A DNA stretch of 64,000 bases from Erythrobacter sp. (GCF_036351135.1 NZ_JAZBON010000022.1:7351-71350), one strand, 5' to 3'. Positions 13,530-34,350 are shown, counted from the first letter of the stretch. The notes: generated by a model not told the origin, from the letters alone. A program made the numbers and translations.

Positions 13530-14893
13530 CCTATCCGACCTATTTCGAAGCGTTCGATCACCGCCAACTGCTCGCCGACTACCCGATCGGCAAAGCCTTC
13601 ACCGATCGGTATTCCAGCATGAGCCGCGATGAACTTTTCGCACTCCAGGACGCGCAATTTGGTCGGCTGATGAAGCGTGGCTGGCAGGTGCCGTTCTACC
13701 GGCGCCTGTGGGGCGAAAAGGGCATTGAGCCGGGTGATATTCGGGGCCTGAAGGACATCGGCAAGCTTCCAGTCTACGACAAGAGCGACCTGATGGCCTC
13801 GATCGCCGAGCACGCGCCCTTCGGCGACTTCCACGGCATGGGCGCGCCTGAAAGCCGTGCTCCGACGATCTTCCACACGACGTCGGGCACGACCGGAAAA
13901 CCGCAGACGCTGATGTTCGGTCCCAAGGGCCGCGAGGTCGGCAATCTGCTGGTCGGGCGAATGTATCGCTGGATGGGTTTGCAGTCCGACGACGTCGTCC
14001 ATTCGGTTTACGGACACGGTATGATCAATGGCGGACACTACATCCGAGAGGCGGTGACACACTTTACCAATTCGGTTTTCCTTTCGGCGGGAACGGGCAT
14101 CGAGACACGCAGTGTCAATCAGGTGCGCCTGATGGCCGATTTCGGCGTGACCGCCATCGTCGGCTTCGTCGATTACATCCGCAAACTGGCGGAGACCGCG
14201 GAGGCGGAAGGTCTCTTCGATCAGATCGACATCCGCATGATCATCGGACATCTCGGCACTGAGGACCGGGCTAGTACCGAGGCAGCATGGCACGGCGCGA
14301 AGGCCTATGACTGGTATGGAGTGGGCGACACCGGGTCGATTGCTGGCGAAGGCCCCGAGCGCGACGGTATGTATGTCTGGGAGGACGCACAATATCTCGA
14401 ACTACTCGGCGTCGACGATGGCAAGCCCGTGGCGCAGGGCGAAACCGGCGACATGGTGGTAACTTGCCTCTACAAGGACGACATCGCGCCGTGCATCCGT
14501 TTCAACACGCACGACATTACCCATGAACTTGATGGGCGCGGTGAGATCGTGTTCAAGCGGATCGCCGGTTTCAAGGGCCGCAGCGACAATATGGTGAAGC
14601 TGCGCGGCATCAACGTCTTCCCGCATGCCATCGGCTCCATCATCGAGAATCGCGCGGACCTGACGGGCGAGTATGTTTGCCATCTCCACCGCGATGAGCA
14701 TCAGAAGGACCACATGCGCGTGACGCTGGAAAGTCGCGGGGGAACCGACGCGGGCGCGCTTGCCGAGACGCTGAAGCAGGGGCTCGGGGTCGAGGTGGAG
14801 GTAGTCCTTTGCGAGCCGGGCGGCACCGCGAAGGCGACAGAGATCGACACTCGCCAGAAACCGCTCCGCCTGATCGACGAGCGAGGAGTCTGA
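13526..14893 (+). CDS. PaaK-like adenylate-forming acyl-CoA ligase (phenylacetate-CoA ligase family)
   Basis: 455 aa. ATGA overlap with the upstream stop. VPFYRRLWGEKGIEPGDIRGLKDIGKLPVYDKSDL and the P-loop-like IFHTTSGTTGKPQ are characteristic of the PaaK/F390-synthetase clade. Confidence 0.8.
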   Translation: MTYPTYFEAFDHRQLLADYPIGKAFTDRYSSMSRDELFALQDAQFGRLMKRGWQVPFYRRLWGEKGIEPGDIRGLKDIGKLPVYDKSDLMASIAEHAPFGDFHGMGAPESRAPTIFHTTSGTTGKPQTLMFGPKGREVGNLLVGRMYRWMGLQSDDVVHSVYGHGMINGGHYIREAVTHFTNSVFLSAGTGIETRSVNQVRLMADFGVTAIVGFVDYIRKLAETAEAEGLFDQIDIRMIIGHLGTEDRASTEAAWHGAKAYDWYGVGDTGSIAGEGPERDGMYVWEDAQYLELLGVDDGKPVAQGETGDMVVTCLYKDDIAPCIRFNTHDITHELDGRGEIVFKRIAGFKGRSDNMVKLRGINVFPHAIGSIIENRADLTGEYVCHLHRDEHQKDHMRVTLESRGGTDAGALAETLKQGLGVEVEVVLCEPGGTAKATEIDTRQKPLRLIDERGV

Positions 14894-14899
14894 GAACGC

Positions 14900-16051
14900 A
14901 TGCTCGACGCCTATAACGCCTTTCTCTATCGCGACGACGACGCGACAGGCGGCGAAGGCGCGCTCGCGGGCCTGTCGATCGGGGTGAAGGCGAATATAGC
15001 GGTCGAAGGGATGCCCCTCCATGCGGGGCTCGGCGCATGGAAAAGCCGCGTCGCCGAAGAAGACGCGGAGGTCGTTCGCCGCCTTCGCAAAGCGGGCGCG
15101 GCCATCATCGGCATCCTGAACATGGAAGAAGGCGCGCTCGGCGCAAAGACCGATAACCCGCATTTCGGCCCAACCCACAATCCGCATCGCCATGGCTATT
15201 CTCCCGGCGGCTCGTCCGGAGGCAGCGGCGCGGCGGTCGCAGCGGGACTGTGCGATGTGGCGCTAGGCACCGACACGATGGGTTCGGTGCGCATCCCGGC
15301 GGCGCATTGCGGGGTCTACGGCTTCAAACCGGCGACGGATCGTGTTAGCCAGGAGGGATTGATCCCTGCCGACCGTTCGCTCGACGCCATTGGTCCCCTC
15401 GCGCGCGACCTCGACACGCTCGAGAAGGTTTCGCGAGTGATCTCCGATTTCGGGGACGGTCATGAGCAATATGAGGGCGCGGTATTAGCGAGGCACGGGG
15501 TCGAGGTGAAGCCGCAGGTCGAAAAAGCGTTCGAGCGCGCGCTTGCCGGCCTTCGCGGGACACCGGCCGAAATCAGCCTCGAAGAGCCCAACAGCCGCAT
15601 TCGTTTCGCCGGCTTTATTCGCGTGTCGAAAGCGCTGGCGGACGATCTCGGGGGCGTCGCCAAGTCCGATCGCCTTGCAAAGCTTCTGACCTATGGACCA
15701 GGGCGCTCGATCGCCGATTGGGCCGAGGACCAGGCGATCCTTGATCGCACGGCGAAACGCGTGAACGCAATCCTCGAGGAACACGGCTTTCTCATAATGC
15801 CAAGCGTACCCAACCCGCCATTCCCGCATTCCGAACCCGAGCCCGCTGCGCAGGCCGACTTCACCTGCCTCGCCAACATCGCAGGCTGCCCCGCGCTTAG
15901 CATGCCGATGGGCTACACCGAGGATGGCCTGCCGCTCGGTGTGCAGATCGTGGGCAGTCCCGGCTACGAGGCCGGGCTGTTCGCGCTCGCCCGCTATCTC
16001 GACAACAATCTGCGCGCCTACCGGGCGCCCGAATCGGCCAGAGGAGCCTGA
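14900..16051 (+). CDS. Amidase-signature family amidase
   Basis: 383 aa. GVKANIAVEGMP (catalytic Lys context), GGSSGGSGAAVAAGL, and GTDTMGSVRIPAAHCGVYGFKP. Confidence 0.9.
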   Translation: MLDAYNAFLYRDDDATGGEGALAGLSIGVKANIAVEGMPLHAGLGAWKSRVAEEDAEVVRRLRKAGAAIIGILNMEEGALGAKTDNPHFGPTHNPHRHGYSPGGSSGGSGAAVAAGLCDVALGTDTMGSVRIPAAHCGVYGFKPATDRVSQEGLIPADRSLDAIGPLARDLDTLEKVSRVISDFGDGHEQYEGAVLARHGVEVKPQVEKAFERALAGLRGTPAEISLEEPNSRIRFAGFIRVSKALADDLGGVAKSDRLAKLLTYGPGRSIADWAEDQAILDRTAKRVNAILEEHGFLIMPSVPNPPFPHSEPEPAAQADFTCLANIAGCPALSMPMGYTEDGLPLGVQIVGSPGYEAGLFALARYLDNNLRAYRAPESARGA

Positions 16052-16054
16052 TCC

Positions 16055-16363
16055 ATGCGTATTATCTGCCTTTTCAACCTGAAGGACGGGGTCGATATCT
16101 CCGAATACGAGGAATGGGCGAAAACTCGGGACATCCCGAAGGTCAACGGTCTCGGCTCGGTAAACTCCTTCACGGTTCACCGGGCAACGGGCGTCTTTGG
16201 CGATGATCAGGCGACGCCGCATTTCGGCTATATCGAAATCATCGACATCACCGGCCTCGAAAAATTCGTCTCAGAAATTTCGAGCGACGACTTCCAGCAG
16301 GCCGCCGCTCCGTTCCAGGGGTTTGCCGACAATCCGCAATTCATCCTGACCGAGAACCTTTAG
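16055..16363 (+). CDS. Small (102 aa) protein, possibly dimeric alpha/beta-barrel (EthD/REDY-like) fold
   Basis: Tightly packed between the amidase and SDR genes (3-4 bp gaps), with coding-like composition. The fold guess rests only on length and the MRIICLFNLKDGVDISEYEEW pattern. Confidence 0.6.
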   Translation: MRIICLFNLKDGVDISEYEEWAKTRDIPKVNGLGSVNSFTVHRATGVFGDDQATPHFGYIEIIDITGLEKFVSEISSDDFQQAAAPFQGFADNPQFILTENL

Positions 16364-16367
16364 AACA

Positions 16368-17168
16368 ATGGGGAAGTTCAGCGGCAAGACGATCGTCGTC
16401 ACCGGATCGGGCAAGCGGAAGGGGCTGGGCCAGGGCATCCTTCAGGCCTTCGCCGACGAAGGCGCCAATTGCGTTGTCTCCGACCTAGCTATCGACGACG
16501 AGGCCGAAGCCGTCGCCGAAGAATTGCGCCGGCGCGGTGCTAAAGTGACCATGATCGCATGCGACGTGGCGAAGGCGGAGCAGTGCACAGACCTCGTTGC
16601 GCGGGCGATCGAAGTTTTCGGCGCGGTCGATGTGATGGTCAACAATGCCGGGATCGGCTTCAAGATGAAACCACTGCTCGACGTCGACACTGCCGATGAA
16701 TGGGACCAGGTGATTGCGGTCAATCTTTCAGGCGCGTTCTATTGCACACAGGCCGCGGCGCGCGCGATGGTCGAAAAAGGCACTGGCGGGCGCATCATCA
16801 ACATCGCAAGCCAGGCGGCGAAGACCGGCTTTCCGCACCTTCCCGCCTATGTCTCGTCGAAGCACGGCATGGTTGGGCTGACCCGCGCAAGCGCTGTCGA
16901 ACTGGGCGCGCATGGGATTACCGTCAATGCGGTGTGTCCCAACCACGTCACCACGGGGCTTGGCGCGCAGCAGAACGAGTACTTCTCCAAGCTCTTGGGC
17001 TTCGAAAGCGTCGAGGAATATCTCGCCAATATGAGCGCGAAGAATCCGATGGGACGACCCGGCCTGCCGAGCGACACGGCGGCGGCATGCCTGTGGCTAG
17101 CAAGCGATGAAGCATTCTATATCACGGGCGAAGCGCTGAATGTCAGCGGCGGTGAGGAGATGCACTGA
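16368..17168 (+). CDS. Short-chain dehydrogenase/reductase (FabG-like)
   Basis: 266 aa. TGSGKRKGLGQGI cofactor loop, NNAG, and catalytic SxnYxxxK (IASQAA...YVSSKHG). Confidence 0.9.
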   Translation: MGKFSGKTIVVTGSGKRKGLGQGILQAFADEGANCVVSDLAIDDEAEAVAEELRRRGAKVTMIACDVAKAEQCTDLVARAIEVFGAVDVMVNNAGIGFKMKPLLDVDTADEWDQVIAVNLSGAFYCTQAAARAMVEKGTGGRIINIASQAAKTGFPHLPAYVSSKHGMVGLTRASAVELGAHGITVNAVCPNHVTTGLGAQQNEYFSKLLGFESVEEYLANMSAKNPMGRPGLPSDTAAACLWLASDEAFYITGEALNVSGGEEMH

Positions 17169-18055
17169 TGGCTCTCGCCGAAGAACGCATGGATTGGCCG
17201 GGCGGCGCGAAACTGGCGCTCAGCGTTGTCGTCAATGTCGAGGAAGGCAGCGAAATGACCATCGCGCGCGGCGATCGCGGGATGGAGCCAGTCGACGAGC
17301 TGGGCGTTTTCGTAAAAGCGAAGATGCGCAATTACTCGAATGAGAGCAATTACCTCTACGGCATCAAGGCAGGCGCGCCGCGCATCGTCAAATTGCTGAA
17401 GCAGTACGACATGATGGCGAGCTGGACCGTCGCGGCGCTCGCCCTCGAAAACCACCCCGAAATCGCCGCAGCGATCGTGGAGCTCGGGCACGAACCGGTC
17501 AGCCACGGCTGGCGCTGGGTCCACCAGTTCAAGATGGACGGGGAGGAGGAGCGCGCCTTCATTCGCAAAGCCGTCACCAGCATCGAGAAGAGCTGCGGCG
17601 TTCGCCCTTATGGCTGGCTCTCGCGCTACCTGCTTACCGACAATACGCGGCGGCTTTTGAGCGAGGAGGGCTTCACCTACCACATGGACGATTACAGCGG
17701 CGACGTGCCGTTCTGGGATCGCGGGACCGGTCCGGGAAAGCCTCCGGAAAACAAACCGATGTGCATCGTCCCCTATCAACTCGACAGCAACGATATGAAG
17801 ATGTGGACCGACCCGGCCCTGACCCCGCATCAATGGCTCGACTATGCCAAGGCTAATTTCGACCAGCTCTACCTTGAGGGCAAAGAGGGCAACCCGAAGA
17901 TGATGAGCCTCGGCCTGCATCTGCGCATCATCGGCCGCCCGGGTCGCATTTGGGCGCTCGAGGAGTTCTTCCGGCACGTTCGCAAGCACGAGGATGTCTG
18001 GATCGCCACGCGCAGGGCGATCGCCGATCATTTCATTGAGAACAATCCCGCATGA
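17168..18055 (+). CDS. Polysaccharide-deacetylase-fold amidohydrolase (PuuE/allantoinase-like)
   Basis: 295 aa. ATGA-type overlap with the SDR stop. WPGGAKLALSVVVNVEEGSE, EPVSHGWRW, YHMDDYSGDVPFW and SLGLHLRIIGRPGR resemble PuuE-type deacetylase-family enzymes. Confidence 0.8.
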   Translation: MALAEERMDWPGGAKLALSVVVNVEEGSEMTIARGDRGMEPVDELGVFVKAKMRNYSNESNYLYGIKAGAPRIVKLLKQYDMMASWTVAALALENHPEIAAAIVELGHEPVSHGWRWVHQFKMDGEEERAFIRKAVTSIEKSCGVRPYGWLSRYLLTDNTRRLLSEEGFTYHMDDYSGDVPFWDRGTGPGKPPENKPMCIVPYQLDSNDMKMWTDPALTPHQWLDYAKANFDQLYLEGKEGNPKMMSLGLHLRIIGRPGRIWALEEFFRHVRKHEDVWIATRRAIADHFIENNPA

Positions 18056-18816
18056 CCCTAAGCCTTGAGATCGAAGGGGCAACCGCGAACCTGCTGATCG
18101 ATCGGCCGGATCGGCGAAATGCATTCGATATGGCAATGTGGGAGGCGATGCCCGCTCTGCTGGAACGGGCGGTAAAGACCAGCGGTGTGCGGTTGCTGGT
18201 CATCCGTTCGGCCACGCCGGCTTCCGCATTCTGCGCTGGCGCGGATATTCGAGAATTGCTTGCGAACAAGGACGATGCAGCTTGGCGTACGGCCAATCAG
18301 CGCGCGATCAATCGCGTCCAGTACGAGCTGGCGCGCCTGCCTCTGCCGACGCTCGCTTTTATTGAAGGCGACTGCATCGGCGGCGGATGCGGGATCGCGC
18401 TCGCCTGCGACCTGCGGCTGGCGACGCGGGAGGCGCGCTTCGGTATCACGCCGGCCAAGCTCGGTCTCGTCTATCCGCTGCATGATGTGAAGCTGCTGAC
18501 CGATCTCGTCGGACCGGGGCAGGCGAAGCGCCTTCTGTATTCTGGCGCGTTGATCGACGCCGAAGAAGCGCTTCGCATCTCGCTGATCGAACAGATCGCC
18601 GACGATCCGGGGCCCATGATCGAAGCCCTGTGCGCGGCCAGCCCGCATTCGATCCGCGAGATCAAGCGCTTCGTGCGCCGCGTCCTCGACGGCCAGGCCG
18701 AGGATGATGACGAAACCCGCCGCGTCTTCGCCGATGCCTTTTTGGGGCGCGACTTTCTCGAAGGCACGACGGCGTTCGTCGAAAGGCGCAAACCCCGCTT
18801 TGGGATGGGCGAATGA
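18052..18816 (+). CDS. Enoyl-CoA hydratase/isomerase (crotonase) family
   Basis: 254 aa. LIDRPDRRNAF, FCAGADIREL, AFIEGDCIGGGCGIALACDLRLA. Confidence 0.9.
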   Translation: MTLSLEIEGATANLLIDRPDRRNAFDMAMWEAMPALLERAVKTSGVRLLVIRSATPASAFCAGADIRELLANKDDAAWRTANQRAINRVQYELARLPLPTLAFIEGDCIGGGCGIALACDLRLATREARFGITPAKLGLVYPLHDVKLLTDLVGPGQAKRLLYSGALIDAEEALRISLIEQIADDPGPMIEALCAASPHSIREIKRFVRRVLDGQAEDDDETRRVFADAFLGRDFLEGTTAFVERRKPRFGMGE

Positions 18817-19715
18817 CGATCCCGCACGGCAGCATTTTCGGCGGGCTTTCAACCGTGCCCGACCTCGCCCGTGCCATCACTGCCTATCGCGACGTTCTGA
18901 CGCTGGAGCTCGTCGAAGAGGGCACGCTTCCCGCCGATCTCGCCGCGAGTTGGGGTTGCGCCGCAAACGAGGGCTCGCCCTATGCCGTGCTGCGACCGGC
19001 GAGTGGCGCGCCCTGCTGGTTCCGGTTGGTCGAACAGCCGGATCATCCCGATTTCCGCCCGACGACGACCTATGGCTGGGCCGCGTTCGAGACCACGGTG
19101 GAGGATGTCTGGCACTGGCCCGGCGCGCTTCCCGAGGGCCTCTTTACTATCGTCGGACCCCCGAAAAAGCTGGAGAATATCGAGCCCGCCTTCATCCCGA
19201 TGCAGGTGTTGGGTACGGGCCGGGAGATGATTTATCTGAACCAGGTTCTCGGCAACATGCCCGGCACCGACCTGCCGCGGGCTCGCTCGCCGGTGGACCG
19301 GATCTTCATCACCGTCCTCGCCACGCCTGACCGCCAGGCGAGCATTGCCTGGTATGGTGAGCGGTTGGGGCTCGAGCGGGGGGCCGACTACACCTTACCC
19401 TATTCGATGATCAACCAAGCCTTTGGCCTGCCACCCGAAACCCAGACGACGATCACGATGGTCAAGCACGGCCGGATGCCGATAGTCGAAGTCGACGATT
19501 ACCCTGCTGCCGCTACAAGGCGCCCCGGGCATCGAGACATGCTGCCCCCTGGCAACGCTTTGGTGACGCTTGCAGTGCGCGACCTCGATCGATGCAGCGC
19601 CGACTGGATCGCGCCGCCGGCTGCGCGCGAAGGTGCGCTTTACGAGGGCCGGCGGGCGGCCTGTGCAATCGGCGCTGGCGGCGAACTGGTCGAATGCGTA
19701 GAGGTCGGGGCATGA
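18813..19715 (+). CDS. Two-domain VOC/glyoxalase-like protein (tentative)
   Basis: 300 aa, overlapping both neighbours by 4 bp. There are two similar halves with beta-alpha-beta-beta-beta-like patterns. No catalytic motif that I can name with certainty. Confidence 0.55.
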   Translation: MTIPHGSIFGGLSTVPDLARAITAYRDVLTLELVEEGTLPADLAASWGCAANEGSPYAVLRPASGAPCWFRLVEQPDHPDFRPTTTYGWAAFETTVEDVWHWPGALPEGLFTIVGPPKKLENIEPAFIPMQVLGTGREMIYLNQVLGNMPGTDLPRARSPVDRIFITVLATPDRQASIAWYGERLGLERGADYTLPYSMINQAFGLPPETQTTITMVKHGRMPIVEVDDYPAAATRRPGHRDMLPPGNALVTLAVRDLDRCSADWIAPPAAREGALYEGRRAACAIGAGGELVECVEVGA

Positions 19716-20024: not shown

Positions 20025-20663
20025 TCAGCCTTTCGGTTCGACAGATGCGAGCGAGCAACTTCCCTGAACCCAGCGCACATTGATCCCGATAAGGTCGGCA
20101 TCGGGCGAGGCCCAGCTATAGCTTTCGGCGCGCACCGGATCGTCCTTGTGGACGTAGAGCACGAGCGAGGGGCGGTTGCGGCTGCCCGCGGCCCAGGTGA
20201 CATTGCGCAGGCGAAGGGTGACGTCGGGCGCATCCCCATTGCCCGGCACGAAGACCCGGCCGCCCTGATCGAATGCCGTAAGCCCGCGCGTGAAGGTCCA
20301 ATCAGCACCGCCATCCGGCTTGGCGGCGAATTTGCGCGCCGACAGCCAGCAGGAGAAAGGGCGCGCCTGTCTCAGCTCGCTGCCCGAAACCTCCCAGCCC
20401 GATCCCCCATCGCGGCGCGCGAGACCCTCGATCGGCGCATCGCTCCAATCGCCGAGGGGCTCGCCGAACGCATCGATCCGGCGCCAACGACCATCCTCAG
20501 CGACTTCGAAAGAGGTCTCCTCGGCTTTCTTGCGACCCTCTTCCTTGGCGAAATAGACGTCTTCGGTGTTCGTCCAGATCCCGGGAGGCAAGCGGTCCTG
20601 GGCCAAAGCCGCATTTGGCAGGCACAGAGCGGGGATCATGAACAGGCGCGCAAGTCTAGCCAT
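20025..20663 (-). CDS. Secreted protein of unknown function
   Basis: 212 aa. Signal peptide MARLARLFMIPALCLPNAALAQD. Operator copy 6 lies about 40 bp upstream of its start. Confidence 0.7.
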   Translation of the reverse strand: MARLARLFMIPALCLPNAALAQDRLPPGIWTNTEDVYFAKEEGRKKAEETSFEVAEDGRWRRIDAFGEPLGDWSDAPIEGLARRDGGSGWEVSGSELRQARPFSCWLSARKFAAKPDGGADWTFTRGLTAFDQGGRVFVPGNGDAPDVTLRLRNVTWAAGSRNRPSLVLYVHKDDPVRAESYSWASPDADLIGINVRWVQGSCSLASVEPKG

Positions 20664-20768: not shown

Positions 20769-21185
20769 CTAGCGGACCAACAGCGTCATGCTGTTGCTGC
20801 CGTCCTTACGCTCATAGGAGATACCCTCGCCCCAGGCCCGCACGATGGTAAGCCCGACGCCACCGCCGCTGACCGGGTCGGGGCCATCGAAGGGGGCTGG
20901 GGCCGTGGGATCGAATGGGTCGCCGTTGTCGCGTATCGATAGATGCACCCCGGCGTCGCCGGGCGACAGGACCAGCATCAGACACGCGGCCCGCGGCATG
21001 CCGCCATGGCGCAGCGAATTGCTGACCAGTTCCTCCACGATGATCGCCAGCTTCACCTTGCCGCGTGCATCGAGCCCGCTTTGCGGCAGGAAACGGCGCG
21101 TGAACCTCAGCGCCTGTGCGATGACGGGCTGCGGATCTCCGTCTTGTGCAAGATAGGCCGAAAATCGTGTCGGGTGATCCATCAA
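20769..21185 (-). CDS. RsbW/SpoIIAB-like serine protein kinase (HATPase_c anti-sigma-type)
   Basis: 138 aa. N-box EELVSNSLRHG, G1-like IRDNGDPFD, G2-like GGGVGLTIV. The size is typical of partner-switching kinases. Confidence 0.8.
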   Translation of the reverse strand: MMDHPTRFSAYLAQDGDPQPVIAQALRFTRRFLPQSGLDARGKVKLAIIVEELVSNSLRHGGMPRAACLMLVLSPGDAGVHLSIRDNGDPFDPTAPAPFDGPDPVSGGGVGLTIVRAWGEGISYERKDGSNSMTLLVR

Positions 21186-21221
21186 GCTATGCTACCATCG
21201 ATGCGCAAGATGGGGGGACAT

Positions 21222-21665
21222 ATGCGAACAGCAATCGTTCGGGCCGGCGCCGCCTTCGCGCTCATCATGGCGAGCCAGCCGGTGCTCGCGGAGGAAATCG
21301 GCCAGATCAAGAACGTCACGCAGGGCGGCGTCGAAGTGCAACGCGGCGACAAGAGCCTGCGCGGTGTCTCCGGATTTCGGGTGATGGAGGGCGACGTCGT
21401 CGTCACCGGAGCGCGCCAGCGGGTCGGCATCACTTTCCTCGACGATACCCGGATGGCGGTTGCCCCGGGCAGCCGGGTGGTCATCTCGCGATATCGGTAT
21501 GACCGCGCGCGCGAGACCGGCAGCTCGCTGATGCAGGTCGATCGCGGCGCCGTCGGAGTCGATTCGGGCAAGCTGTCCGGTTCGGGCCGGATGCGTTTCA
21601 AGACCCCGACCTCGACGCTCGGCGTGCGCGGCACGAGCTTCGTCATCGAAGTCGACGCCGAATGA
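21222..21665 (+). CDS. Secreted stand-alone FecR-domain protein
   Basis: The track ORF 20943-21665 overlaps the divergent kinase gene. The start at 21222 gives the signal peptide MRTAIVRAGAAFALIMASQPVLAEE. GQIKNVTQGGVEVQRGDKSL..VMEGDVVVTGARQRVGITFLDDTRMAVAPGSRVVISRY is a FecR-type beta-sandwich pattern. It has no TM segment and no anti-sigma N-domain. Confidence 0.8.
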   Translation: MRTAIVRAGAAFALIMASQPVLAEEIGQIKNVTQGGVEVQRGDKSLRGVSGFRVMEGDVVVTGARQRVGITFLDDTRMAVAPGSRVVISRYRYDRARETGSSLMQVDRGAVGVDSGKLSGSGRMRFKTPTSTLGVRGTSFVIEVDAE

Positions 21666-22270
21666 AGGCGGCTCTGGCGCTTGCAGGCATGCTCGTCCTC
21701 GCGGGCTGCGCGACCTATTCGGAGCGCGTGACTTTGCTCGAACCGGTGCAGGCGGAGAAGCGCGCCGGCGGCGAGATCGGGGCGGTCGCGATCCTCGCAG
21801 AGGACGGTTCGGAAACGTTGATCGATGCGGCGGGCGAGCAGGCGCAACTGGGTAGCGGCGCGCCGCGGATCGTGCAGCTTGCCGCCGCCGATCCGTTGCA
21901 TACGGCGATCATGGCCGATCTCCCGCGCGAACGTAGCAGCGTCAGCATCGCCTTTCGCACCGGCCAGTCCGCGCTCGATCCCGAACAGATCACACAGCTT
22001 ACCCAGTGGGCGCTCAGCGATGGCGAGGCGGGGCCGCGACCGGGCAGCGAAATCGTGGTGCGCGCCTATGCCGATGCGTTCGGTTCCGAAGAGGAGAACC
22101 TTGCCTTGTCGCAGGAGCGCGCCCGCGCCGTCGCCGCGCAATTGCGCGCTGCCGGTCTCGACATCGAAAAAGGCGCGGCGCAGGGAATGGGCGAATATGC
22201 CGCGCAGGCAGATACCGGCGACGAGGTGCGCAGTCCCAAATGGCGCCGGGTGGACGTCATCATCCGCTAG
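21662..22270 (+). CDS. OmpA-family lipoprotein (peptidoglycan-binding C-terminal domain)
   Basis: 202 aa. ATGA overlap with the fecR-like stop. Lipobox LVLAGC. The C-terminus VVRAYADAFGSEEENLALSQERARAVAAQLRAAG...RRVDVII is OmpA_C-like. Confidence 0.8.
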   Translation: MKAALALAGMLVLAGCATYSERVTLLEPVQAEKRAGGEIGAVAILAEDGSETLIDAAGEQAQLGSGAPRIVQLAAADPLHTAIMADLPRERSSVSIAFRTGQSALDPEQITQLTQWALSDGEAGPRPGSEIVVRAYADAFGSEEENLALSQERARAVAAQLRAAGLDIEKGAAQGMGEYAAQADTGDEVRSPKWRRVDVIIR

Positions 22271-22284
22271 GACCCCTACGCGCA

Positions 22285-24351
22285 TCACGCTGCCTCTTCG
22301 CCGAGATAGCGCAGCGCCAAGATGGTCAGGTCGTCCGCCGGATCGGTGCCGCGTTCGAACGCTCGCACCTGGAGCGCGAGGTCCTGTGCGCGGATCTGTG
22401 CGCTATTGTCGCCGCTTTGCGCCAACGCCGACATCACGCCGTTGAGGCCGAACCGCGCACCCCTTGCGTCGGAGGCATCGGTCGCGCCGTCGGAGATGAC
22501 GACCAGCGTTTCGTCCGGGGCGAGGGTCAGGCTTTCCACGCGGTAGGGAAAGCCTTCGAACGTGCGCATCCGCACCCCCCCGCGCATTGCCGCGACCTCG
22601 ACCCGGCCATCGGCGCGCACGATCAATGGGTCCTCGTGCCCGGCATTGATCATCTGTACTTCGCCGCTTGCACAGTCGATCACGCCTACCAGTAGGGTCA
22701 GGTCCATTTCCTGGTCCTCCTCCGCCATCAACTCGTCGTTGACCCGCCGGATCGCGGCCTCGAGGTCGTGGCCCATGCGCATCACGTTGTTCTTGGACAC
22801 CGATTTGGAGAGCGCCATGAAGAGAGCGGCGGGCAGACCCTTTCCGCTGACGTCGCCGACAAGGAAGGCGAGGCGATCGTCGCCGAGATCCATCGCGTCG
22901 TAGAAGTCGCCGCCAACGGATCTCGCAGGTTCGAGCACTGCGCCGATCTCGGTCCGCCTGCCGAGCTGCGCGAGCCGGGCAGGGCTGGGCACCATGGTCA
23001 GCTGCAAGGCTCTGGCGCTTTCGTTTTCCTTTGCCTGTTCTGCGGCGAGGATGCGTTTTTCGATCAGCTCGATCACCATGAGGCTATAGCGCGCCAGCAA
23101 CAGGGCGAGGGCGGCACATCCGGCGATGAGGAGCGGGCGGGCGGGATCGAGAAGAAGGTTCGCGCGTGCGAACAGGGCGAAGGAGGCGAACGGCAAGACG
23201 AGTGCGCCAAGCGCGGCCGCGACGAGCCATCTGTTGTTCGCGGTGACACCCGCCGCAAGAAATAGCGCGATCAGAAGGGCGGCAATCGCGACTTCGATGG
23301 CGGTGATCCAGGCGGGACGCGCGAGCCAGTTGCCCGTCAGGATCGCATCCACCGCCTGTGCTTGAACGAGCGTCCCCTGAACCTCGCCCGCGAGCGGCGT
23401 TGCGACGATATCGCTCGTGCCCGTCGCGCCAAAGCCGACGAGCACGATCTTGCCCGAAAATTCGCCCGGCGCGACCTTGCCGCGCAGCACTTCGATGGCG
23501 GGTATGGCGAGTGCTTCCCACCCTCGTGCCATGCGAAAGGCGAAATGCGCCCTGTCATCGCCAGGGACCACCCGGTCGCCCACCGCCATCCCGCCCTTCG
23601 TCCAGCGCAGATCGGCATTGCCCCCAACCTGCGCCGCTAGAACAGGAGTGAAGCCTGGTGCGGTTTCTCCGCCAGCGATCACGCCCAGCGGAACCCGCCG
23701 TGTGACGCCATCCGGATCTGGCGGCGCGCTGACGATACCGCGCGCCAGGGCGACATCGTCGAATGCCGGCAGGCTGGTCAACATGCGCTGCGTGCGAATA
23801 GCTCCTGCCGGGAGCGTACCCTCGATATGTTCGAAGGTCAGCTCGCTTGCCGGCCTTCCGCCCTCTTGCGAAACCACCCAGGGCATCACCACGGGCGAGG
23901 ACGCGATGACATCGGCAAGGGCATCGTCGCCCGATGGAAGCGCGCCGATCCGTTCGCGCGTTGCCGGATCGATCGCGTCCTCGGTGTAAAGCTCGAGGAA
24001 GGAGGCCGGCCGCAAACGATCTGGCTCGACGAAAAAGATATCGACGCCGATCGCCGCAGGATCGGCCGCTGCGATACGCTCCAGCAGGACCGCGACATCG
24101 TAGCGCCGCCAGGGCCATTCGCCGATCGCGGCGACGCTGGGATCGTCGATCATCACCACCGCGACCCGATCGGCCGATGCCTCCAATGGTGCGAGCCGTT
24201 GCCAGCCGTCGAAAACGAGACGGCGCTGGAAGTCGCCCGCGACGAGGCTCAGCAGCACTCCGAAGATGGCGCCGCCGAGGATCGCGGCGGCGAGGATGCG
24301 GCGGGCGGCCCGGCCGCTGCCGGGCTCAGACCTCGACACAAAGCCCGTCAT
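22285..24351 (-). CDS. CHASE2 sensor fused to PP2C/SpoIIE-type Ser/Thr phosphatase (RsbU-like)
   Basis: 688 aa. N-terminal TM segment, then a periplasmic CHASE2-like region (RVAVVMIDDPSVAAIGEWPW..AIGVDIFFVEPD), then a three-helix TM block. The C-terminal part carries GGDFYD, GDVSGKGLPAALFM, NAGH and VISDGATD. Its start overlaps the upstream MBL gene by 26 nt. Confidence 0.85.
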   Translation of the reverse strand: MTGFVSRSEPGSGRAARRILAAAILGGAIFGVLLSLVAGDFQRRLVFDGWQRLAPLEASADRVAVVMIDDPSVAAIGEWPWRRYDVAVLLERIAAADPAAIGVDIFFVEPDRLRPASFLELYTEDAIDPATRERIGALPSGDDALADVIASSPVVMPWVVSQEGGRPASELTFEHIEGTLPAGAIRTQRMLTSLPAFDDVALARGIVSAPPDPDGVTRRVPLGVIAGGETAPGFTPVLAAQVGGNADLRWTKGGMAVGDRVVPGDDRAHFAFRMARGWEALAIPAIEVLRGKVAPGEFSGKIVLVGFGATGTSDIVATPLAGEVQGTLVQAQAVDAILTGNWLARPAWITAIEVAIAALLIALFLAAGVTANNRWLVAAALGALVLPFASFALFARANLLLDPARPLLIAGCAALALLLARYSLMVIELIEKRILAAEQAKENESARALQLTMVPSPARLAQLGRRTEIGAVLEPARSVGGDFYDAMDLGDDRLAFLVGDVSGKGLPAALFMALSKSVSKNNVMRMGHDLEAAIRRVNDELMAEEDQEMDLTLLVGVIDCASGEVQMINAGHEDPLIVRADGRVEVAAMRGGVRMRTFEGFPYRVESLTLAPDETLVVISDGATDASDARGARFGLNGVMSALAQSGDNSAQIRAQDLALQVRAFERGTDPADDLTILALRYLGEEAA

Positions 24352-25309
24352 AGGAGCACAGGACTTCGAGCGCCGCTTCTTTGCGCGTCAGCTCTTCGTA
24401 GCGCACCGTTTCCGCGTGAATGCCCTCGATATCCTCATCGCTATAGGTCGGCTCGTGGTGGAACAGGGCCAGCCGCTTCGCGCCCGCCTGGTGACACAGA
24501 TCGACCGCTACGAGATTGGAGGAATGACCCCAGTCCTCTTTCATCGACACGCTGTCGGCGAGCGAATACATTGTGTCGGCGATGACCAGGTCGACGCCGG
24601 AGAAGAAGTCGACCATGGCATATTCCTCGTCCATCTTGTCGATCTTGTATTCCGCGTCGGTCGAATAGACCGCGCTCGCTCCGCCCGTATCGCGGAAGCG
24701 GTAGCCGTAGCTGGTGTGGCTGTGCTCCTGCTCGATCATCGCGACGGTCAGCTCGCCGATCTGATAGTCGCGGCCCGTCTCGAGCGTGCGGAACTCGATA
24801 TCGGCCTTGAGCCAGTCAAAGGGGACCGGAAAGGAGATTTCTTCCTGCTGCCGGCGCAAGGCTTCCTCCGCATCGCGGTGGCCGGCATGGACGATCACCT
24901 TCGCCCCTTCGAGGAAGGCGGGCACGAAGAAGGGGAAACCCATTATGTGATCCCAATGGAGATGCGAAAGGAAGAAATGCCATTCCTTCGGGCGCTTGCC
25001 CTCGGCCAGGCGGCGCAGCGCATCGAGGCCGAGTTCGCGCAGGCCCGATCCCATGTCGCAGATGACGAAAGCGCCGCGACCGACATCGATCTCGACGCAG
25101 CTGGTGGCTCCGCCGTAACCTTGGCCGATGCTAAAAGGGAGATCCTTGCGGACGTAGTCGAGCGCCGCATCTCTATCGGAAAAGCTGCGCGACCCGGCTT
25201 CGACCAACGCGGCCGCAACCTTGTCGGCGATCGTATCTGCGTGCGGCGCCACTGGCAGAGAGCCGCGCGTGCCCCAAAACCGGATCTGCATATTTCCCCC
25301 CAAAGTCAC
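24326..25309 (-). CDS. MBL-fold metallo-hydrolase
   Basis: 327 aa. IRFWGTRGSLP, FLSHLHWDHIMGFPFF (HxHxDH motif), and a C-terminal LFHHEP. The real start may be the Met at 25291. Confidence 0.8.
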   Translation of the reverse strand: MTLGGNMQIRFWGTRGSLPVAPHADTIADKVAAALVEAGSRSFSDRDAALDYVRKDLPFSIGQGYGGATSCVEIDVGRGAFVICDMGSGLRELGLDALRRLAEGKRPKEWHFFLSHLHWDHIMGFPFFVPAFLEGAKVIVHAGHRDAEEALRRQQEEISFPVPFDWLKADIEFRTLETGRDYQIGELTVAMIEQEHSHTSYGYRFRDTGGASAVYSTDAEYKIDKMDEEYAMVDFFSGVDLVIADTMYSLADSVSMKEDWGHSSNLVAVDLCHQAGAKRLALFHHEPTYSDEDIEGIHAETVRYEELTRKEAALEVLCSYDGLCVEV

Positions 25310-25333
25310 GCAGGCGGGAACATGCCGCCCGCC

Positions 25334-25822
25334 TTAGCTTCCGACTGCATCCTCCACCGTATCTGCGACCTGGAAGACCATGTCATAACGGCTGATCGCG
25401 AGGATTTCACTCATCGTCTCGTTCGGACTGGCGAGAACGATTGTCGTGCCGCTTTCCCCGGCAGCGCGCTGCGCCAATGTCAAAGCGCGAAGTCCGCGCG
25501 AAGACATGTATTCGATCCGCGACAGATCGAGAACGACCCTGTCCGAGCCGGTCTGAACCGCATCGATCAAATGCGCCCGAAACGCATACGCCGTCGTTTC
25601 ATCGACCCGTCCCGCCGGCTCGAGCACGATCACGTTGCCTCGCTGGCTCTGCGACCAGTCCAATGCACCACCCGTCATCAGATGTGCATAGCGTGCGGCC
25701 GGCCGATTGCCAAATGGCCTCGGCGCCCTGCCAGCATCAAGGCGCGGGCCGGAGGGGAGAGTACGGTCAAACACGCCGAGGACGGGCGCAATAGCAGCGA
25801 TATCTTGCATCATGATTTCCAA
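25334..25822 (-). CDS. STAS-domain protein (RsbV/SpoIIAA-like anti-anti-sigma antagonist)
   Basis: The C-terminal ~110 aa (VIVLEPAGRVDETTAYAFRAHLIDAV..RVVLDLSRIEYMSSRGLRALTLA) match the STAS fold, with the phosphorylatable Ser context MSSRGL. An alternative start at 25678 would give a canonical 114-aa protein. Confidence 0.75.
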   Translation of the reverse strand: MEIMMQDIAAIAPVLGVFDRTLPSGPRLDAGRAPRPFGNRPAARYAHLMTGGALDWSQSQRGNVIVLEPAGRVDETTAYAFRAHLIDAVQTGSDRVVLDLSRIEYMSSRGLRALTLAQRAAGESGTTIVLASPNETMSEILAISRYDMVFQVADTVEDAVGS

Positions 25823-26270: not shown

Positions 26271-28061
26271 ATGTTTGCCGGCGTAGCGTCGACGCTCGGC
26301 ATTGCGGCAGGCGCGCTTGTTCCTGCGGCAGCGGCTCGCGCTCAGGATCAGGTTCCGCCACAACTTACCCCGCCGCCGCGCACTCAGCTGACCCCGCCCG
26401 AACAACGGCGCGACGAACGCCCCACCACGCTGACGATCGACGGCGATCTCGAGCGTACGCCCTGCGTGCTCGACCGGGCGGAATATGCCAATATTACGCT
26501 GACCTTAAGCGGGGTCGATTTCGCCGGGCTCGAACGCGTGCCGGGCCTTTCGCTGGACGAGGCGTATGACGGGTATCTCGGGCGCGAACTGCCGCTTGCC
26601 GTCATGTGCGACATTCGCGCGCAGGCAAACGCCATTCTGCGCTCTCAAGGCTATCTGGCGACGGTCGAGATACCGGAACAGAACCTGAGCGACGGCGTAG
26701 CGGATTTTCGCGTCGTTTTCGGCCGTCTTGCGGCGCTGCGCGTGCGCGGAGATGCCGGGCCTTCCGAGGCGCTGGTCGCCTCCTATCTGGAAAAACTGAC
26801 CGAGGCCGACGTCTTCAACACGCAGGATGCCGAACGCTACCTGCTGCTCGCCGACGATCTGCCCGGAACCGACGTGCGCCTTTCTCTGCGCCCGGCGGCG
26901 GACGGCGAGCCGGGTGATCTGCTGGGCGAAATCGCGGTGGTGCGCAGGCGCGGCCAGGTCGATTTCAACATTCAGAATTTCGGTTCGGAAACGCTCGGAC
27001 CCTTCGGCGGATTGTTGCGCGGTGAGCTGTTCGACCTCACCGGCCTGGGCGATCGCACCACGCTCGCAGTTTTCAGCACAGTCGAGTTTTCCGAACAGCA
27101 GACTTACCAGCTTGGCCACGATTTCGCGGTCGGCAGCGAGGGGCTACGCCTGGGCGGACAGGTGACCTATAGCGAGACCGACCCCGACCTCGATCTCGAT
27201 GGCTTCGACCTTAAGTCCGAGACGGTGCTCGCAACCGTGTTCGCATCCTACCCGCTCGAGCGTTCGCGCCGCACATCGACAGTTCTGAGCGGCGGGTTCG
27301 ATCTGGTCGATCAGAACGTCGAGTTGAACGACTTCACGCTTTCGCGCGACCGGGTGCGCACGCTGTACGCGCGGATCGACACCAACTGGACCGATTTTGC
27401 GAGCATTCGCAATATCGGCGGTTACAACGCTTTCGAGCCGCGCTGGCGCGCGCGTTTGGCGACCGAGTTGCGTCAGGGGATCGACGTGTTCTCCGCAAGC
27501 GAGGATTGTCGCGCAGATCCACTTGCCTGCACCGCGGATGGCGCCGCTCCGCCAAGCCGGATCGAGGGCGATCCGACGCCGCTGCTCGCGCGGTTCAGCG
27601 CCGGTTTCGAATATCGACCGACGCCGCTCTTTACCGTCGCGCTCGATGCGAGCGCGCAGATCGCCGCCGATCCGCTGCCGGCCTTCGAAGAATATGCAGG
27701 CGGCAGTTTCTCGATCGGCCGCGGTTACGATCCCGGTTCGGCGCTGGGCGACGATGGCGTCGGCGCCGCCTTCGAGCTGCGTTACGGCTCGCTCGCGCCC
27801 GCGGCGGTGGATGCCGTCGCGGTTCAACCTTACGCCTTCACCGATGTCGTCGTGACCTGGAATCAGGATCCCAGCCGTGTTGCCGCCAATCCCGACGAGC
27901 TTTGGTCCGTCGGTGGAGGAATGCGCGCGATCTGGGGCTCTAACCTCCAGGCCGACGCCTTCGTGGCGGTCCCGCTCGAAAGGCCGGACCTGGCCCTCGA
28001 GAAGCCCGACGTGCGCTTCATGTTCTCGATCACCGCTCGCCTCGTACCCTGGAGATATTGA
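26271..28061 (+). CDS. TpsB outer-membrane transporter (ShlB/FhaC/HecB family)
   Basis: The start at 26271 gives the signal peptide [25 protein letters not shown]. This is followed by a Pro-rich linker, a POTRA-like region ([16 protein letters not shown]...[32 protein letters not shown]) and then a beta-barrel ([25 protein letters not shown]...). C-terminal aromatic residues ...LVPWRY. Confidence 0.85.
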
Positions 28062-28062
28062 T

Positions 28063-31000
28063 ATGGGTCGCTCTAACACCAATCGCTCGAAATTCCTGAT
28101 CGGCTGCGGCTCCGCCGCGCTGGCGATGGGATTGCTGATTGCGTCCGAGCGGGCACAGGCACAGGCGTTCAACGCCAATGCCGAAAATGGCGGATTGGGC
28201 ACCTATCAGCGGGTGATCGTCGATGGGACCAGCGAGATCATCGAGATCGAGACCCCGACCGCGGTGATCGACTGGACGCCGTTGGAGGATGCGGGCGGCA
28301 ACGCTCTCGATTTCCTTCCGACCGGCGCCACCGCAACGTTCCAGAACAGCAGCGACATCAACCCCGGCTCGAATTTCGCGGTGCTCAACCGCATCATGCC
28401 GTCATCCAATGGCGACATAGTCGTGATGGACGGGACGGTCATTTCGCAGATCGTCGACAGCGCCGGGGAGTCGAGCGGTCCTGGCGGCACGGTGGCGTTC
28501 TATTCGCCCACCGGTCTCATCATCGGCGACAATGCCGTGTTCGATGTCGGCAACCTGATCCTGACGACGCTCGACGTTTCCAACGCCAGTTTTGAGGCGT
28601 TCACCCAGAGCGGCGGTCAGCTGCAACTGGCGCGCGACAGCGATTTCCCTGGTGCTAACATCCGGCTCGATTTCGGCGCGCAAATCACCGCCACTGCCGA
28701 GAACTCCTACCTCGCGGTCACGGCTGCCGATATCCGGGTTTTCGGAACGACCGACGTCAACGGCAGTCAGGCGTTCGTCGCTGGCGACGAGATCAACCTG
28801 TCCTTTTCCAACGGACTGTTCGACATCCAAGTCGTCACCGGCACGGAAGCGACCAATGCTATCAGTCTGTCGGGCGACGTTGGCGGTCCGTCGAGCACGG
28901 GCGCGGGCGACAATCACATCATCTACGCCGTAGCGCGCGCCGCGGCCGATCCGATTTCGCTATTGTTTGGCGGCAATCTCGGCTTCGAACCGGCAGCCAG
29001 CGCCGGCATCGTCAACGGCGAGATCATCCTGTCGGCCAACTTCGACGTGGACGGAAGAACAGTTGCAGGAGCGTCGACCACGGAGGGTATCGACGCGGTG
29101 TTCGACAACCGGTTGGCGACCACCGATACGAACGGCGAGATTGCTATCGGCTCGCTGATCGCGACCAGTTCGTTGACCGCTGTTGCCAATGATCAAGTGT
29201 TCATCGAAGCGATCGAGAGCACGATTGATGTGACGGGCGACTTGATCTTGCACGGCACCACTTTCGCGGTCGCTTCCGCTTCTGACGGTGGCGACCTTGC
29301 CATCTCTGGAGACGTGCTGGTTTCCTCGCTCGACCTAGGCGAAGTGTCGGGCGGTTTTGACGGGATCGGCGAAGCCGCCGCGACCGGCGGTACTGCGGTC
29401 CTGAGCGGCAGTTTCGGCGGGATCGTCACGATCGACGGCGACGTTCGCGTGACGGCGGAAGCGATCGCGGGTCTCGATACCGAAAGCCAGGCAACCGGAT
29501 CGGCCACGGGCGGCAACGCCTCAATAAATGCGGGCGAAGGCGGCGAAGTGACCATCGACGGCTTTGCCGAGGTGCTGGCTTCGGCTGAGGCCTCTTCGTT
29601 TGCCGAAACGGTGCTGGAAGGCAACGAGTTTCGCGGTGGTGCGGCGCGAGTGAATATTGAATTCGACGGGGACGTGACCGTCGATGGTAATCTCACCGTG
29701 GCTGCGGATGCCTTCGGTGCGGATGGCGACGACTTCAACCCTTCGACCGGATCGCCCGCTTTCGGTGGCACCGCATTTGTCACGATGGATAGCGCGCCTG
29801 ATTCTCTCAATGTCGGGGGCGATGTTCTAGTGGCCGCTGATGCCATTGCCGGAAGCTCGAACGAGGCAGATCAGGGCGCGTTAGCAGATGCGGGCAACGC
29901 GCAGATATTCACTCGCCGCAACGACACCATCGATATCACCGGCAATGTCAGTCTGTCCGCGAGGGCCGAGGGCGGTTCTAATGCGAACGGTTTGGGCGGC
30001 GATGCCCTGGGCGGGATCGCCGGCATGTTAATTAATGAGGGTGGCAATGCGACCATCGGCGGCGACTTCGCGGCCGACGGATCGGCCAGGGCCGGCGATG
30101 GTGGAGCCGGGGGCGGCGACGCGTTCGCCGGGATTGCCGGAGCGCGGGTTACGATCGGTTCGATCGACATTGCCGGTTCGGGCAATGCCAATGCGAGCGG
30201 CGCTGGCGGAAATGCCGGTTTGGGTACCGATGGCGGGCGCGGCGAGGGCGGCAATGCTTTTTTCCAGGCCGATGGAACGGCGATGGAGACCGCATCGCTC
30301 GCGATCGGCAGCGACGCCATCCTCAACGCCGATGGCATTGGCGGCGCCGGCGGCTTCGGCAGCGGCGCGGGCGGTGACGGGGTGGGCGGCCAGTTCGACA
30401 CGCCCAACCAGGCGGATGTCGAAACCACGCCCAATAGCGGCGCCTACCTGCTAGCCGGCGGCGACAACGGTTCGATAAGCGTTGGCGGCGCAACCTCTTT
30501 AAGCGCCATCGGCTTCGGCGGCGCCGGCGGGGGATCGATATCCTTCGACACCGGCGGTGCCGGCGGGTCGGGCACAGGTGGGGCGGCACAGGCGGGGCTT
30601 GCCTTCCTCGATGGCGACGGTTCGGTGGGTGCCGGCACGGCGTCATTCGGAAACGTTAATGTCGATTCGCAAGGCGTTGGGGGGATCGGTGGCGATGGGG
30701 AAGAAGGCGACGGCGTCGGCGGCGATGGGACTGGCGGTTTGGCCATCTTCTCTGGCACCGCCGGCACAATAACCGCCGCCGACGTTACTTTGTTCGGCAC
30801 TGCCGTGGGCGGCGACGGCGGTACGGGCGGAACTGCCGATGGCGGCGGCGCGGGCATTCTCGGTTCGGCGCAGGGCTCGGTCACGATCGACAGTCTTTCA
30901 GCGCAGGCGATCGCGCGCGGCGGCAACGCTAGCGATGGCGGCGCTGATGCAAATGGCGGCGTTGCTTTCGGCGGGGAAGCGGTTCTCGATGGGAGCGAGA

Positions 31001-34000: not shown

Positions 34001-34350
34001 CGCCTACGCCTACACCGACGCCGACGCCGACGCCGGCACCGCCTCCGATCTCGGGGCCACCGCCACCACCGCCGCCGCCCGAGCTGCCGCCGGAAGTGCA
34101 GGTTGTGTTCGAGCAGATTACCAATGAAGAGGTCGTCGAAGCCGCTGTTTCGTCGGCGGTTCCGGTTCCGATCAGCGGGGAGGAGAGCAACGAGGAATTC
34201 GGCCTCGACTTCCCTGCTTTCGTCGAAAGCGATGAGATCGACGAGGAAACGGATGTCGGCGATGCCGTCGCCTCGGGCGGCGATTCCTCTCTCTACCGAC
34301 CGCAGACCGGCACCGTCGAAGTCGGAGAGGAGGCATCCGATGACCAGTGA
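28063..34350 (+). CDS. TpsA-type giant exoprotein (filamentous-haemagglutinin-type TPS domain, Gly-rich beta-helix-like repeats, Thr-Pro linker, acidic tail)
   Basis: The track ORF begins at 27877 inside tpsB. The ATG at 28063, 1 nt after the tpsB stop, gives [36 protein letters not shown]. The TPS-domain pattern is [16 protein letters not shown]...ATFQNSS...[24 protein letters not shown]...[28 protein letters not shown]. 2095 aa in total. Confidence 0.85.
33697..34047 (+). repeat. Coding (Thr/Ala-Pro)n dipeptide repeat, about 57 units, followed by a poly-Pro stretch (to 34095)
   Basis: Reading frame CCN-ACN/GCN repeated from 33697 (cca aca ccc acg cca acg ...) to 34047. The codons are a mixture of cca/ccg/cct/ccc and acg/aca/act/acc. 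The longest perfect hexamer run is (ccaacg)x6 near 33709-33744. Confidence 0.95.

Follow-up and report, generated by a model that had tools for sequence, protein, structure and literature searches.

What does a partner-switching module control when no sigma factor is encoded beside it? The question is raised by a stretch of 64,000 nt of DNA from Erythrobacter sp. (the window, by which we mean this whole stretch), where positions 20769-25822 hold the genes for an STAS protein, an RsbW-like kinase and a CHASE2-bearing PP2C phosphatase, together with those for a hydrolase of the metallo-beta-lactamase (MBL) fold, a FecR-like and an OmpA-like protein. On balance we incline to the idea that these six genes constitute a self-contained, sigma-independent cassette of the partner-switch type, in which the phosphorylation state of the STAS protein controls the MBL enzyme; the MBL protein is the most likely output of the switch because members of its family are recurrently fused to STAS domains.

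The open reading frames (ORFs) of the window were scanned with Pfam and NCBIfam models, and all the genes and domains named in an earlier annotation of this DNA (hereafter, the original prediction), i.e., STAS, MBL, CHASE2-SpoIIE, HATPase_c kinase, FecR-like and OmpA-like, were recovered with Pfam. The cassette reads as follows:

20769-21182, minus strand: serine kinase of the RsbW/SpoIIAB type with the GHKL fold, 137 amino acids (HATPase_c_2, E 5e-11, 43 bits)
21183-21221, unstranded: intergenic region between the divergent kinase and FecR-like genes (from the start-codon analysis)
21222-21665, plus strand: secreted FecR-domain protein, 147 amino acids, with an N-terminal signal peptide (Pfam FecR, E 2.9e-9, 38 bits)
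21662-22270, plus strand: OmpA-like peptidoglycan-binding lipoprotein, 202 amino acids, lipobox LAGC (Pfam OmpA, E 3e-10)
22285-24351, minus strand: membrane PP2C phosphatase with a periplasmic CHASE2 sensor, 688 amino acids (CHASE2, E 3e-42, 145 bits; SpoIIE, E 1.5e-38, 133 bits)
24326-25291, minus strand: MBL-fold hydrolase of the phosphodiesterase type, 321 amino acids (Lactamase_B_2, E 6e-16, 59 bits)
25334-25678, minus strand: single-domain STAS protein of the anti-sigma-antagonist type, 114 amino acids (Pfam STAS, E 1.5e-15, 57 bits)

The longest ORFs were too long at the 5' end for the kinase (20769-21185), MBL (24326-25309) and STAS (25334-25822) genes; start sites were chosen by inspection of start codons and ribosome-binding sites and by the lengths of database homologues. 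The likely starts are the ATG codons at 25678 (STAS), 25291 (MBL), 24351 (phosphatase), 21662 (OmpA-like), 21222 (FecR-like) and 21182 (kinase). An MBL protein starting at 25291 has the same length as all its database homologues; the FecR-like start is preceded by the ribosome-binding site GGGGGGA and opens a signal-like N-terminus (MRTAIVRAGAAFALIMASQPVLA), and the OmpA-like start overlaps the FecR-like stop codon (ATGA). The predicted overlap of 26 nt between the MBL and phosphatase genes corresponds to positions 24326-24351, and an identical one is called in loci L001, L002, L084 and L088 (L numbers designate the loci compared with the window), being absent from L087 and L089. As for the proposal that the STAS, MBL and phosphatase genes form one minus-strand operon, their order, strand and spacing agree with it, and the operon itself is predicted from the 42-nt gap between STAS and MBL and from the 26-nt overlap. 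Scans of the window for consensus promoters and terminators gave matches at chance level only, and an Rfam scan gave none. The kinase gene, expected about 1 kb past the phosphatase gene, was found 1.1 kb beyond its 3' end and indeed points away from the FecR-like gene, their likely starts being about 39 nt apart. In L001, L002, L087, L088 and L089 the two genes are arranged back to back just as closely, and the interval 21183-21221 might serve as a common control region for the two genes.

Do these genes belong together? A diverse MBL alignment of 50%-identity cluster representatives was used to fetch 80 loci, each GTDB species being represented by a single genome and the MBL gene being the only bait; the six-frame ORFs of these loci were then searched with iterated hidden Markov models (HMMs) built from the window proteins as seeds. 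All seven domains were detected in 28 of the 84 MBL-retrieved sources, the window included, and in three more close relatives. The set of STAS, MBL, CHASE2-PP2C, OmpA-like, FecR-like and kinase genes recurs in 31 sources, with the same order (STAS> MBL> CHASE2-PP2C> <OmpA <FecR kinase>, arrowheads giving the direction) in 30 of them, the sole exception being L011, where the kinase gene stands between STAS and MBL. Of the 84 sources, 45 carry an STAS gene at most 10 kb away from the MBL gene. Since the loci had been retrieved by the MBL gene alone, such a co-occurrence is far beyond chance. For the same reason the FecR-like/OmpA-like pair, which the original prediction had taken as mere neighbours, has to be considered an invariant part of the cassette; its adjacency is kept in 31 loci, and the convergence of the OmpA-like gene with the phosphatase gene is a conserved position. 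The OmpA-like protein gave domain matches to the NCBIfam YiaD, YfiB and Pal-like models, all under their cut-offs.

This conservation spans several phyla. Close MBL homologues (66-82% identity) are found in Erythrobacter, Qipengyuania, Tsuneonella and Novosphingobium, and the identical gene order is embedded in unrelated flanks in Novosphingobium tardum, Tsuneonella dongtanensis, two JGI metagenome contigs, an Erythrobacter metagenome-assembled genome (MAG; L087) and GCA_947488085.1 (L088). Carriers are many among the Burkholderiales and include Duganella flavida and Rugamonas, together with MAGs of Casimicrobiaceae, Rhodocyclaceae and Azonexaceae; the other source labels are Sphingomonadales/Alphaproteobacteria, Candidatus Rokubacteria, Sulfotelmatobacter, Dormiibacterota, Binatus and "Deltaproteobacteria" MAGs. 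Plasmid carriage is limited to three remote matches.

Besides the complete cassette, reduced or rearranged forms exist. Minimal trios of MBL, STAS and kinase genes occur in L008 (MBL> <STAS <kinase), L057 (MBL, kinase, STAS) and L060 (kinase, STAS, MBL), whereas L040 adds the phosphatase (MBL> <STAS <kinase <PP2C-CHASE2). In an uncultured bacterium (L046:4307-10549) the order is LysM-FecR-Ig protein, MBL, STAS, kinase and HAMP-SpoIIE, all in one direction; the logic is unchanged, but the sensor is not CHASE2 and a LysM peptidoglycan-binding domain replaces OmpA. In L008, L011, L040, L046, L057 and L060 the kinase gene directly adjoins the STAS gene. Two further observations concern the surroundings of the kinase gene: a Burkholderiales MAG (L006) carries two tandem OmpA-like/FecR-like pairs between phosphatase and kinase, and just downstream of the kinase gene of the window a 212-amino-acid secreted protein with no Pfam family is encoded (20025-20663, minus strand), which is not conserved beside the cassette elsewhere.

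Are the parts of the switch intact? The STAS protein scores 65 bits against TIGR00377 (cut-off 53), and its best match in the Protein Data Bank (PDB) is TM1442 (E 2e-11); the serine of the MSSRGL motif, proposed as the phospho-acceptor, aligns with the phospho-Ser of this anti-sigma antagonist and is a Ser in 42 and a Thr in one of 45 orthologues. The kinase, found in 33 of the 84 MBL-anchored sources, exceeds the HATPase_c_2 cut-off (43 bits vs. 27.4) and matches SpoIIAB in the PDB weakly; its N-box residues E33 and N37 do not vary, a G2 box (GGxG) can be recognised in 31-32 of 33 orthologues, and the glycine of the G1 box is only half conserved (Gly in 15, Ala in 14). In the phosphatase, the catalytic Asp motifs GGD, GDVSGKG, DG and DD are kept in 35-38 of 38 orthologues, and the metal-binding residues D44, D62, D183 and D235/D236 are invariant. 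Hence the conserved STAS serine, the N and G2 boxes of the kinase and the PP2C aspartates bear out the idea of a complete RsbU/V/W-type set, and, judging from these residues, the three components appear to be functional. The periplasmic input through CHASE2 was also recognised correctly, the CHASE2 domain and an adjacent secreted FecR-domain protein being both present (145 and 38 bits).

If so, does the switch end on a sigma factor? According to a classical partner switch, the kinase would sequester a sigma factor or some other regulator whose gene lies at another place in the genome, and the MBL protein would be accessory or simply co-regulated. The matches of the kinase to HATPase_c_2 and, weakly, to SpoIIAB fit this explanation, as does an STAS protein of the anti-sigma-antagonist type scoring above the TIGR00377 cut-off, and some partner-switching systems are known to act on targets encoded away from them. 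Nevertheless, we regard it as fairly unlikely. Pfam scans of about 55 ORFs of the window detected no Sigma70 domain, and sigma HMMs run with filters off on all its six-frame ORFs returned nothing below E=1, sigma-54 not being specifically modelled; the two scans agree with the original prediction that the window encodes no sigma factor. Likewise, no sigma gene was found at a conserved position across about 30 orthologous loci from several phyla, sigma-like ORFs occurring in only a few loci and at a variable distance of 4-8 kb. Moreover, the MBL gene is kept in nearly all the CHASE2-PP2C loci of the clade.

Two candidates for a missing sigma factor were considered and rejected. In a relative from Erythrobacter, a set made up of an extracytoplasmic function (ECF) sigma factor, a FecR anti-sigma factor and a TonB receptor lies beyond the cyclase gene (L087:4730-6332); it is absent from the window and from the other cassette loci. 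SigB-like matches about 5 kb from stand-alone MBL genes of spirochaetes most likely correspond to rpoD beside dnaG, DnaG domains being among the neighbours in the census.

What, then, would the switch act on? The strongest indication comes from proteins in which the STAS and MBL domains are joined, and these strongly back the proposal of the original prediction that the MBL protein might be the output. A search of 1.84 billion cluster representatives with the MBL protein yielded 5937 relatives, the best 150 of which were examined for fusions; in 47 of these 150 representatives of 50%-identity clusters an STAS domain is fused, in the order STAS-MBL (6), MBL-STAS (5) or MBL-STAS-Pkinase (36). 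STAS-MBL fusions are among the nearest relatives outside the 50% cluster of the window protein itself (43-49% identity), and most of the MBL-STAS-Pkinase proteins run on into AAA_16 and TPR repeats, reaching about 1500-1650 amino acids. Among the genome loci, true in-frame fusions number five (L015, L029, L042, L048 and L068): L015 is a lone STAS-MBL fusion, and L029 carries an STAS-MBL fusion within a complete cassette that retains the kinase. L010, L016, L020 and L028, which at first resembled STAS-MBL fusions, were discarded, the STAS domain lying in another frame of long stop-to-stop ORFs.

The remaining three loci (L042, L048 and L068) are Chloroflexota-type MAG giants with the architecture MBL-STAS-Hanks kinase-AAA_16-TPR, which is shared by proteins P0136 and P0140-P0142, among others; this family is sizeable, accounting for 24-36 of the top 150 representatives. 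In such proteins a fused Hanks kinase replaces the RsbW-type kinase beside STAS, which argues that the role of the kinase is the phosphorylation of STAS rather than the holding of a sigma factor. The occurrence of fusions in both orders, the fusion within the full cassette of L029 and the substitution of the kinase thus lead us to favour a direct STAS-MBL coupling over sigma sequestration, which leaves both the fusions and the replacement unexplained. The short STAS/MBL fusions retain the phospho-Ser; in the giants the corresponding position is a Thr in many cases and Ile, Val or Met in others.

The active site of the MBL protein itself is complete. All of 56 diverse homologues share its metal ligands H110, H112, D114, H115, H190, D212, H256 and H278, and its AlphaFold2 model has a pLDDT of 95.4 and a pTM of 0.93. 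With Foldseek, PDB entries 1y44, 6b9v, 6kns, 1zkp, 4ojv and 7u2r are among the best matches of this model, which comprise B. subtilis RNase Z, a PhnP-family diphosphatase, YhfI, the B. anthracis ElaC homologue, PqqB, yeast PDE1 and Apyc1 (for Apyc1, 7u2r, E 1e-8 and TMq 0.51); an extra helical insert near residues 15-60 is left uncovered by these matches. The modelled structure thus places the protein in the RNase Z/PhnP/YhfI/Apyc1 phosphodiesterase branch of the MBL superfamily, and its substrate may be a cyclic or linear nucleotide, an RNA end or a cyclic phosphate. The Apyc1 family PF23023 gave a faint match in precomputed annotation only and none in the Pfam scan at E<=0.01; a viral structure library was uninformative for the model, and PADLOC had no match for the MBL, STAS, kinase or PP2C proteins, on which ground a reading of the cassette as a defence system was rejected. 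The neighbours of distant stand-alone MBL homologues gave no clue to the substrate either: among 134 neighbours with 182 Pfam families, none is conserved, each family being present in at most three loci.

The fusions and the coupling of the genes show that STAS and MBL cooperate, not in which direction. The MBL enzyme might therefore act upstream, making or destroying a nucleotide-like ligand sensed by STAS, the kinase or the PP2C phosphatase, with the real output elsewhere. Some STAS domains do bind nucleotides, and the MBL fold belongs to a branch acting on nucleotides. On the other hand, the cassette holds no other conserved candidate for an output, and in the multidomain kinase-AAA-TPR fusions the MBL domain is N-terminal, a position that in STAND-like proteins is usually that of the effector; in our opinion, an upstream role of the enzyme is very unlikely.

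Returning to the control of the MBL enzyme by STAS, the following chain of events can be imagined. An envelope or periplasmic cue would be sensed by the CHASE2 domain of the membrane phosphatase, jointly with the FecR-domain protein and the peptidoglycan-anchored OmpA-like lipoprotein, and would alter the activity of PP2C on STAS phosphorylated at the serine of MSSRGL. The RsbW-like kinase would re-phosphorylate STAS, so that the balance between phosphatase and kinase would set the level of the unphosphorylated protein. The phosphorylation state of STAS would, in turn, control the MBL phosphodiesterase, most likely by direct STAS-MBL contact or, less likely, by titration of the kinase away from the enzyme. 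The output would be enzymatic and not transcriptional, consisting in the hydrolysis of a phosphodiester substrate such as a cyclic or linear nucleotide or RNA. The gene content, the intact catalytic and acceptor residues, the conservation across phyla and the fusions are observed; which proteins bind each other, in which direction STAS regulates (activation or inhibition), what is hydrolysed and what is sensed are what we infer in this scheme.

Some data weigh against it. The hydrophobic residue at the phospho-site of some giants implies that phospho-control is not universal in the MBL family, and distant stand-alone homologues (30-40% identity; spirochaetes, Myxococcota and others) are found without STAS. 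The AlphaFold2 model of a natural STAS-MBL fusion reaches a pTM of only 0.76, with a low-confidence, disordered linker and no fixed interface demonstrated. The structural matches of the MBL protein are remote (13-19% identity, TM about 0.5-0.66), and its scores are far under the cut-offs of the RNase_Z model TIGR02651 (58 vs. 293 bits) and of the cNMP-degrading phosphodiesterase model NF041851 (54 vs. 400 bits). Lastly, a typical RsbW-like kinase could still hold an unlinked sigma factor.

A further candidate for the output lies on the other side of the STAS gene, where a second CHASE2 system occupies positions 26271-40429 of the plus strand:

about 26271-28061, plus strand: TpsB-like transporter (POTRA_2 and ShlB)
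28063-34350, plus strand: exoprotein of about 2095 amino acids, no Pfam match, with a TPS-like N-terminus as judged by eye and a long Pro-Thr repeat
about 34340-37402, plus strand: CHAT-domain protein
37549-39690, plus strand: CHASE2-class III cyclase (Guanylate_cyc)
39665-40429, plus strand: secreted protein of 254 amino acids, no Pfam match, its gene overlapping the cyclase gene

With the PADLOC Pycsar cyclase model PDLC00734 the catalytic domain of this cyclase gives 115 bits (E 1e-33), but with Pfam Guanylate_cyc only 56 bits; by eye, its substrate-specifying positions (Lys in DKYVGD, Thr in YTALGD) look adenylate-type. The 254-amino-acid protein might be FecR-like, its BLASTP match to the FecR-like protein of the cassette having an E of 0.03.

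The switch might control the secretion of the TpsB/giant exoprotein/CHAT locus, as the original prediction had suggested, or else the CHASE2 adenylate/guanylate cyclase within a circuit based on a cyclic nucleotide (cNMP). Both the window and L088, a relative at 80% identity, have the TpsB and giant protein genes in divergent orientation to STAS; in L087 a CHASE2 cyclase, with a downstream gene of 248 amino acids, is directly divergent from STAS, and in L060 a TPR-cyclase lies 4 kb from the kinase-STAS-MBL trio. In Campylobacterota, the genes of CHASE2 cyclases are grouped with those of a phosphodiesterase and a FecR protein (PMC9239204). However, the adjacency varies even among relatives at 80% identity: TpsB and the giant protein are absent from L087, L089, L001-L003 and all the other loci, and no TpsB, CHAT or cyclase gene occurs within 10 kb in the great majority of module loci, including the Sphingomonadales L001-L003 and L089. 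Thus, the second CHASE2 system is not a conserved part of the cassette, and an output through secretion or the cyclase is less probable still than an upstream role of the MBL enzyme. A bolder possibility extends the control of the MBL enzyme by STAS: the switch might gate a new class of MBL-fold phosphodiesterase degrading a nucleotide second messenger, which in Erythrobacter the CHASE2 cyclase (37549-39690) would synthesise and the CHASE2-PP2C, STAS and MBL chain would break down, both under the control of CHASE2 envelope receptors. More generally, the STAS-MBL couple would then be a widespread signalling output pair, reused in the giant MBL-STAS-kinase-AAA-TPR proteins; we hold this possibility to be distinctly unlikely.

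Elsewhere in the window, upstream of the cassette, a long catabolic cluster on one strand (5092-19715, plus) encodes an HpcH-like aldolase, an acyl-CoA dehydrogenase, two family III CoA-transferases, two MmgE/PrpD proteins and an AMP-binding-type enzyme, as well as an amidase, an SDR, a polysaccharide deacetylase-like protein, an enoyl-CoA hydratase and a glyoxalase-like protein. At 48419-49573 (minus) and 49712-51421 (minus) a stand-alone receiver-domain protein of 137 amino acids is encoded beside a 232-amino-acid protein with only a weak helix-hairpin-helix match, followed by a vWF/YfbK-type protein. The region 51500-58000 has a GC content of 68-72% and several long overlapping ORFs on both strands; gene calls there are uncertain, and Pfam gave no match for the best candidates in it (51525-53687, 55602-56702 and 56750-57904).

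Partner switches are textbook regulators of sigma factors, and a few control diguanylate cyclases. If the proposed scheme is correct, an MBL-fold phosphodiesterase would represent a new dedicated class of output, and the pathway described here would be the first defined downstream of CHASE2-PP2C receptors. Since the cassette is found under the labels of several phyla and STAS and MBL are paired in the giant kinase-AAA-TPR proteins as well, the characterisation of a single member would annotate thousands of proteins now known only as "MBL fold metallo-hydrolase". The cassette also offers a compact genetic handle, with an enzymatic read-out, on the cooperation of FecR-domain and peptidoglycan-binding proteins with CHASE2 sensors.

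How does the cassette compare with known systems? The individual domains, the partner-switch principle and switches with an enzyme as output are already known; what is new is the dedicated pairing of STAS with MBL, its placement downstream of a CHASE2-PP2C/FecR/OmpA sensor and the wide distribution of the cassette. A full-text search, which covered subscription papers incompletely, turned up no description of these features and no paper in which either an MBL enzyme or CHASE2 is connected with STAS or with partner switching. Like RsbU-RsbV-RsbW and SpoIIE-SpoIIAA-SpoIIAB, the cassette combines a phosphatase of the PP2C family with an STAS protein that consists of a single domain and has the conserved phospho-Ser, and with a small serine kinase (GHKL, HATPase_c_2). 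It differs from them in lacking a sigma gene in cis, as do the orthologous loci, in encoding an MBL hydrolase, fused to STAS in relatives, inside the predicted operon, and in having a phosphatase whose periplasmic sensor, CHASE2, is accompanied by FecR-like and OmpA-like helpers.

The input side recalls other CHASE2/FecR systems, in which the gene of the CHASE2 sensor has as neighbours those of a secreted protein with a FecR domain and of a component that binds peptidoglycan or resides in the outer membrane. These comprise the operon of Burkholderia encoding a response regulator, a LysM-FecR protein and a CHASE2 histidine kinase (PMC5192318), the CyaD1/smc02177 and NsrA-dependent CHASE2 cyclases of S. 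meliloti with their FecR-CHASE2 pairing (PMC5498481, PMC13001267, PMC7529298) and the CHASE2 cyclase-phosphodiesterase-FecR clusters of Campylobacterota (PMC9239204). There a histidine kinase or class III cyclase acts as the transmitter, whereas in the cassette this part falls to a PP2C phosphatase feeding STAS, kinase and MBL. On the output side, the MBL protein has the fold and the full HxHxDH...H...D...H...H set of metal ligands of RNase Z, PhnP, YhfI, Apyc1 and the class II phosphodiesterases, and it is set apart from these enzymes by its dedication to STAS, its extra helical insert and its low identity.

The closest logic is found in SiaABCD of P. aeruginosa, HsbA-HsbD and BgrV-BgrR of S. 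meliloti, where the phosphorylation state of an STAS or STAS-like protein governs its direct regulation of a diguanylate cyclase (PMC8457831). In the SiaABCD type, this state depends on a GHKL-type kinase and on a PP2C phosphatase in the membrane, and the unphosphorylated STAS-like protein binds the enzyme (PMC8457831). A phospho-switch with an enzyme as output is precisely the logic that we propose for the cassette, which, unlike those systems, contains no GGDEF gene, its embedded enzyme being a Lactamase_B_2 protein. Furthermore, its PP2C phosphatase matches the NCBIfam model of SiaA at the domain level only (34 bits vs. a cut-off of 700), SiaC is a DUF1987 and not a Pfam STAS protein, and the SiaABCD type has no CHASE2/FecR/OmpA input. 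The cassette may work like the SiaABCD-type switches, of which it is not a member.

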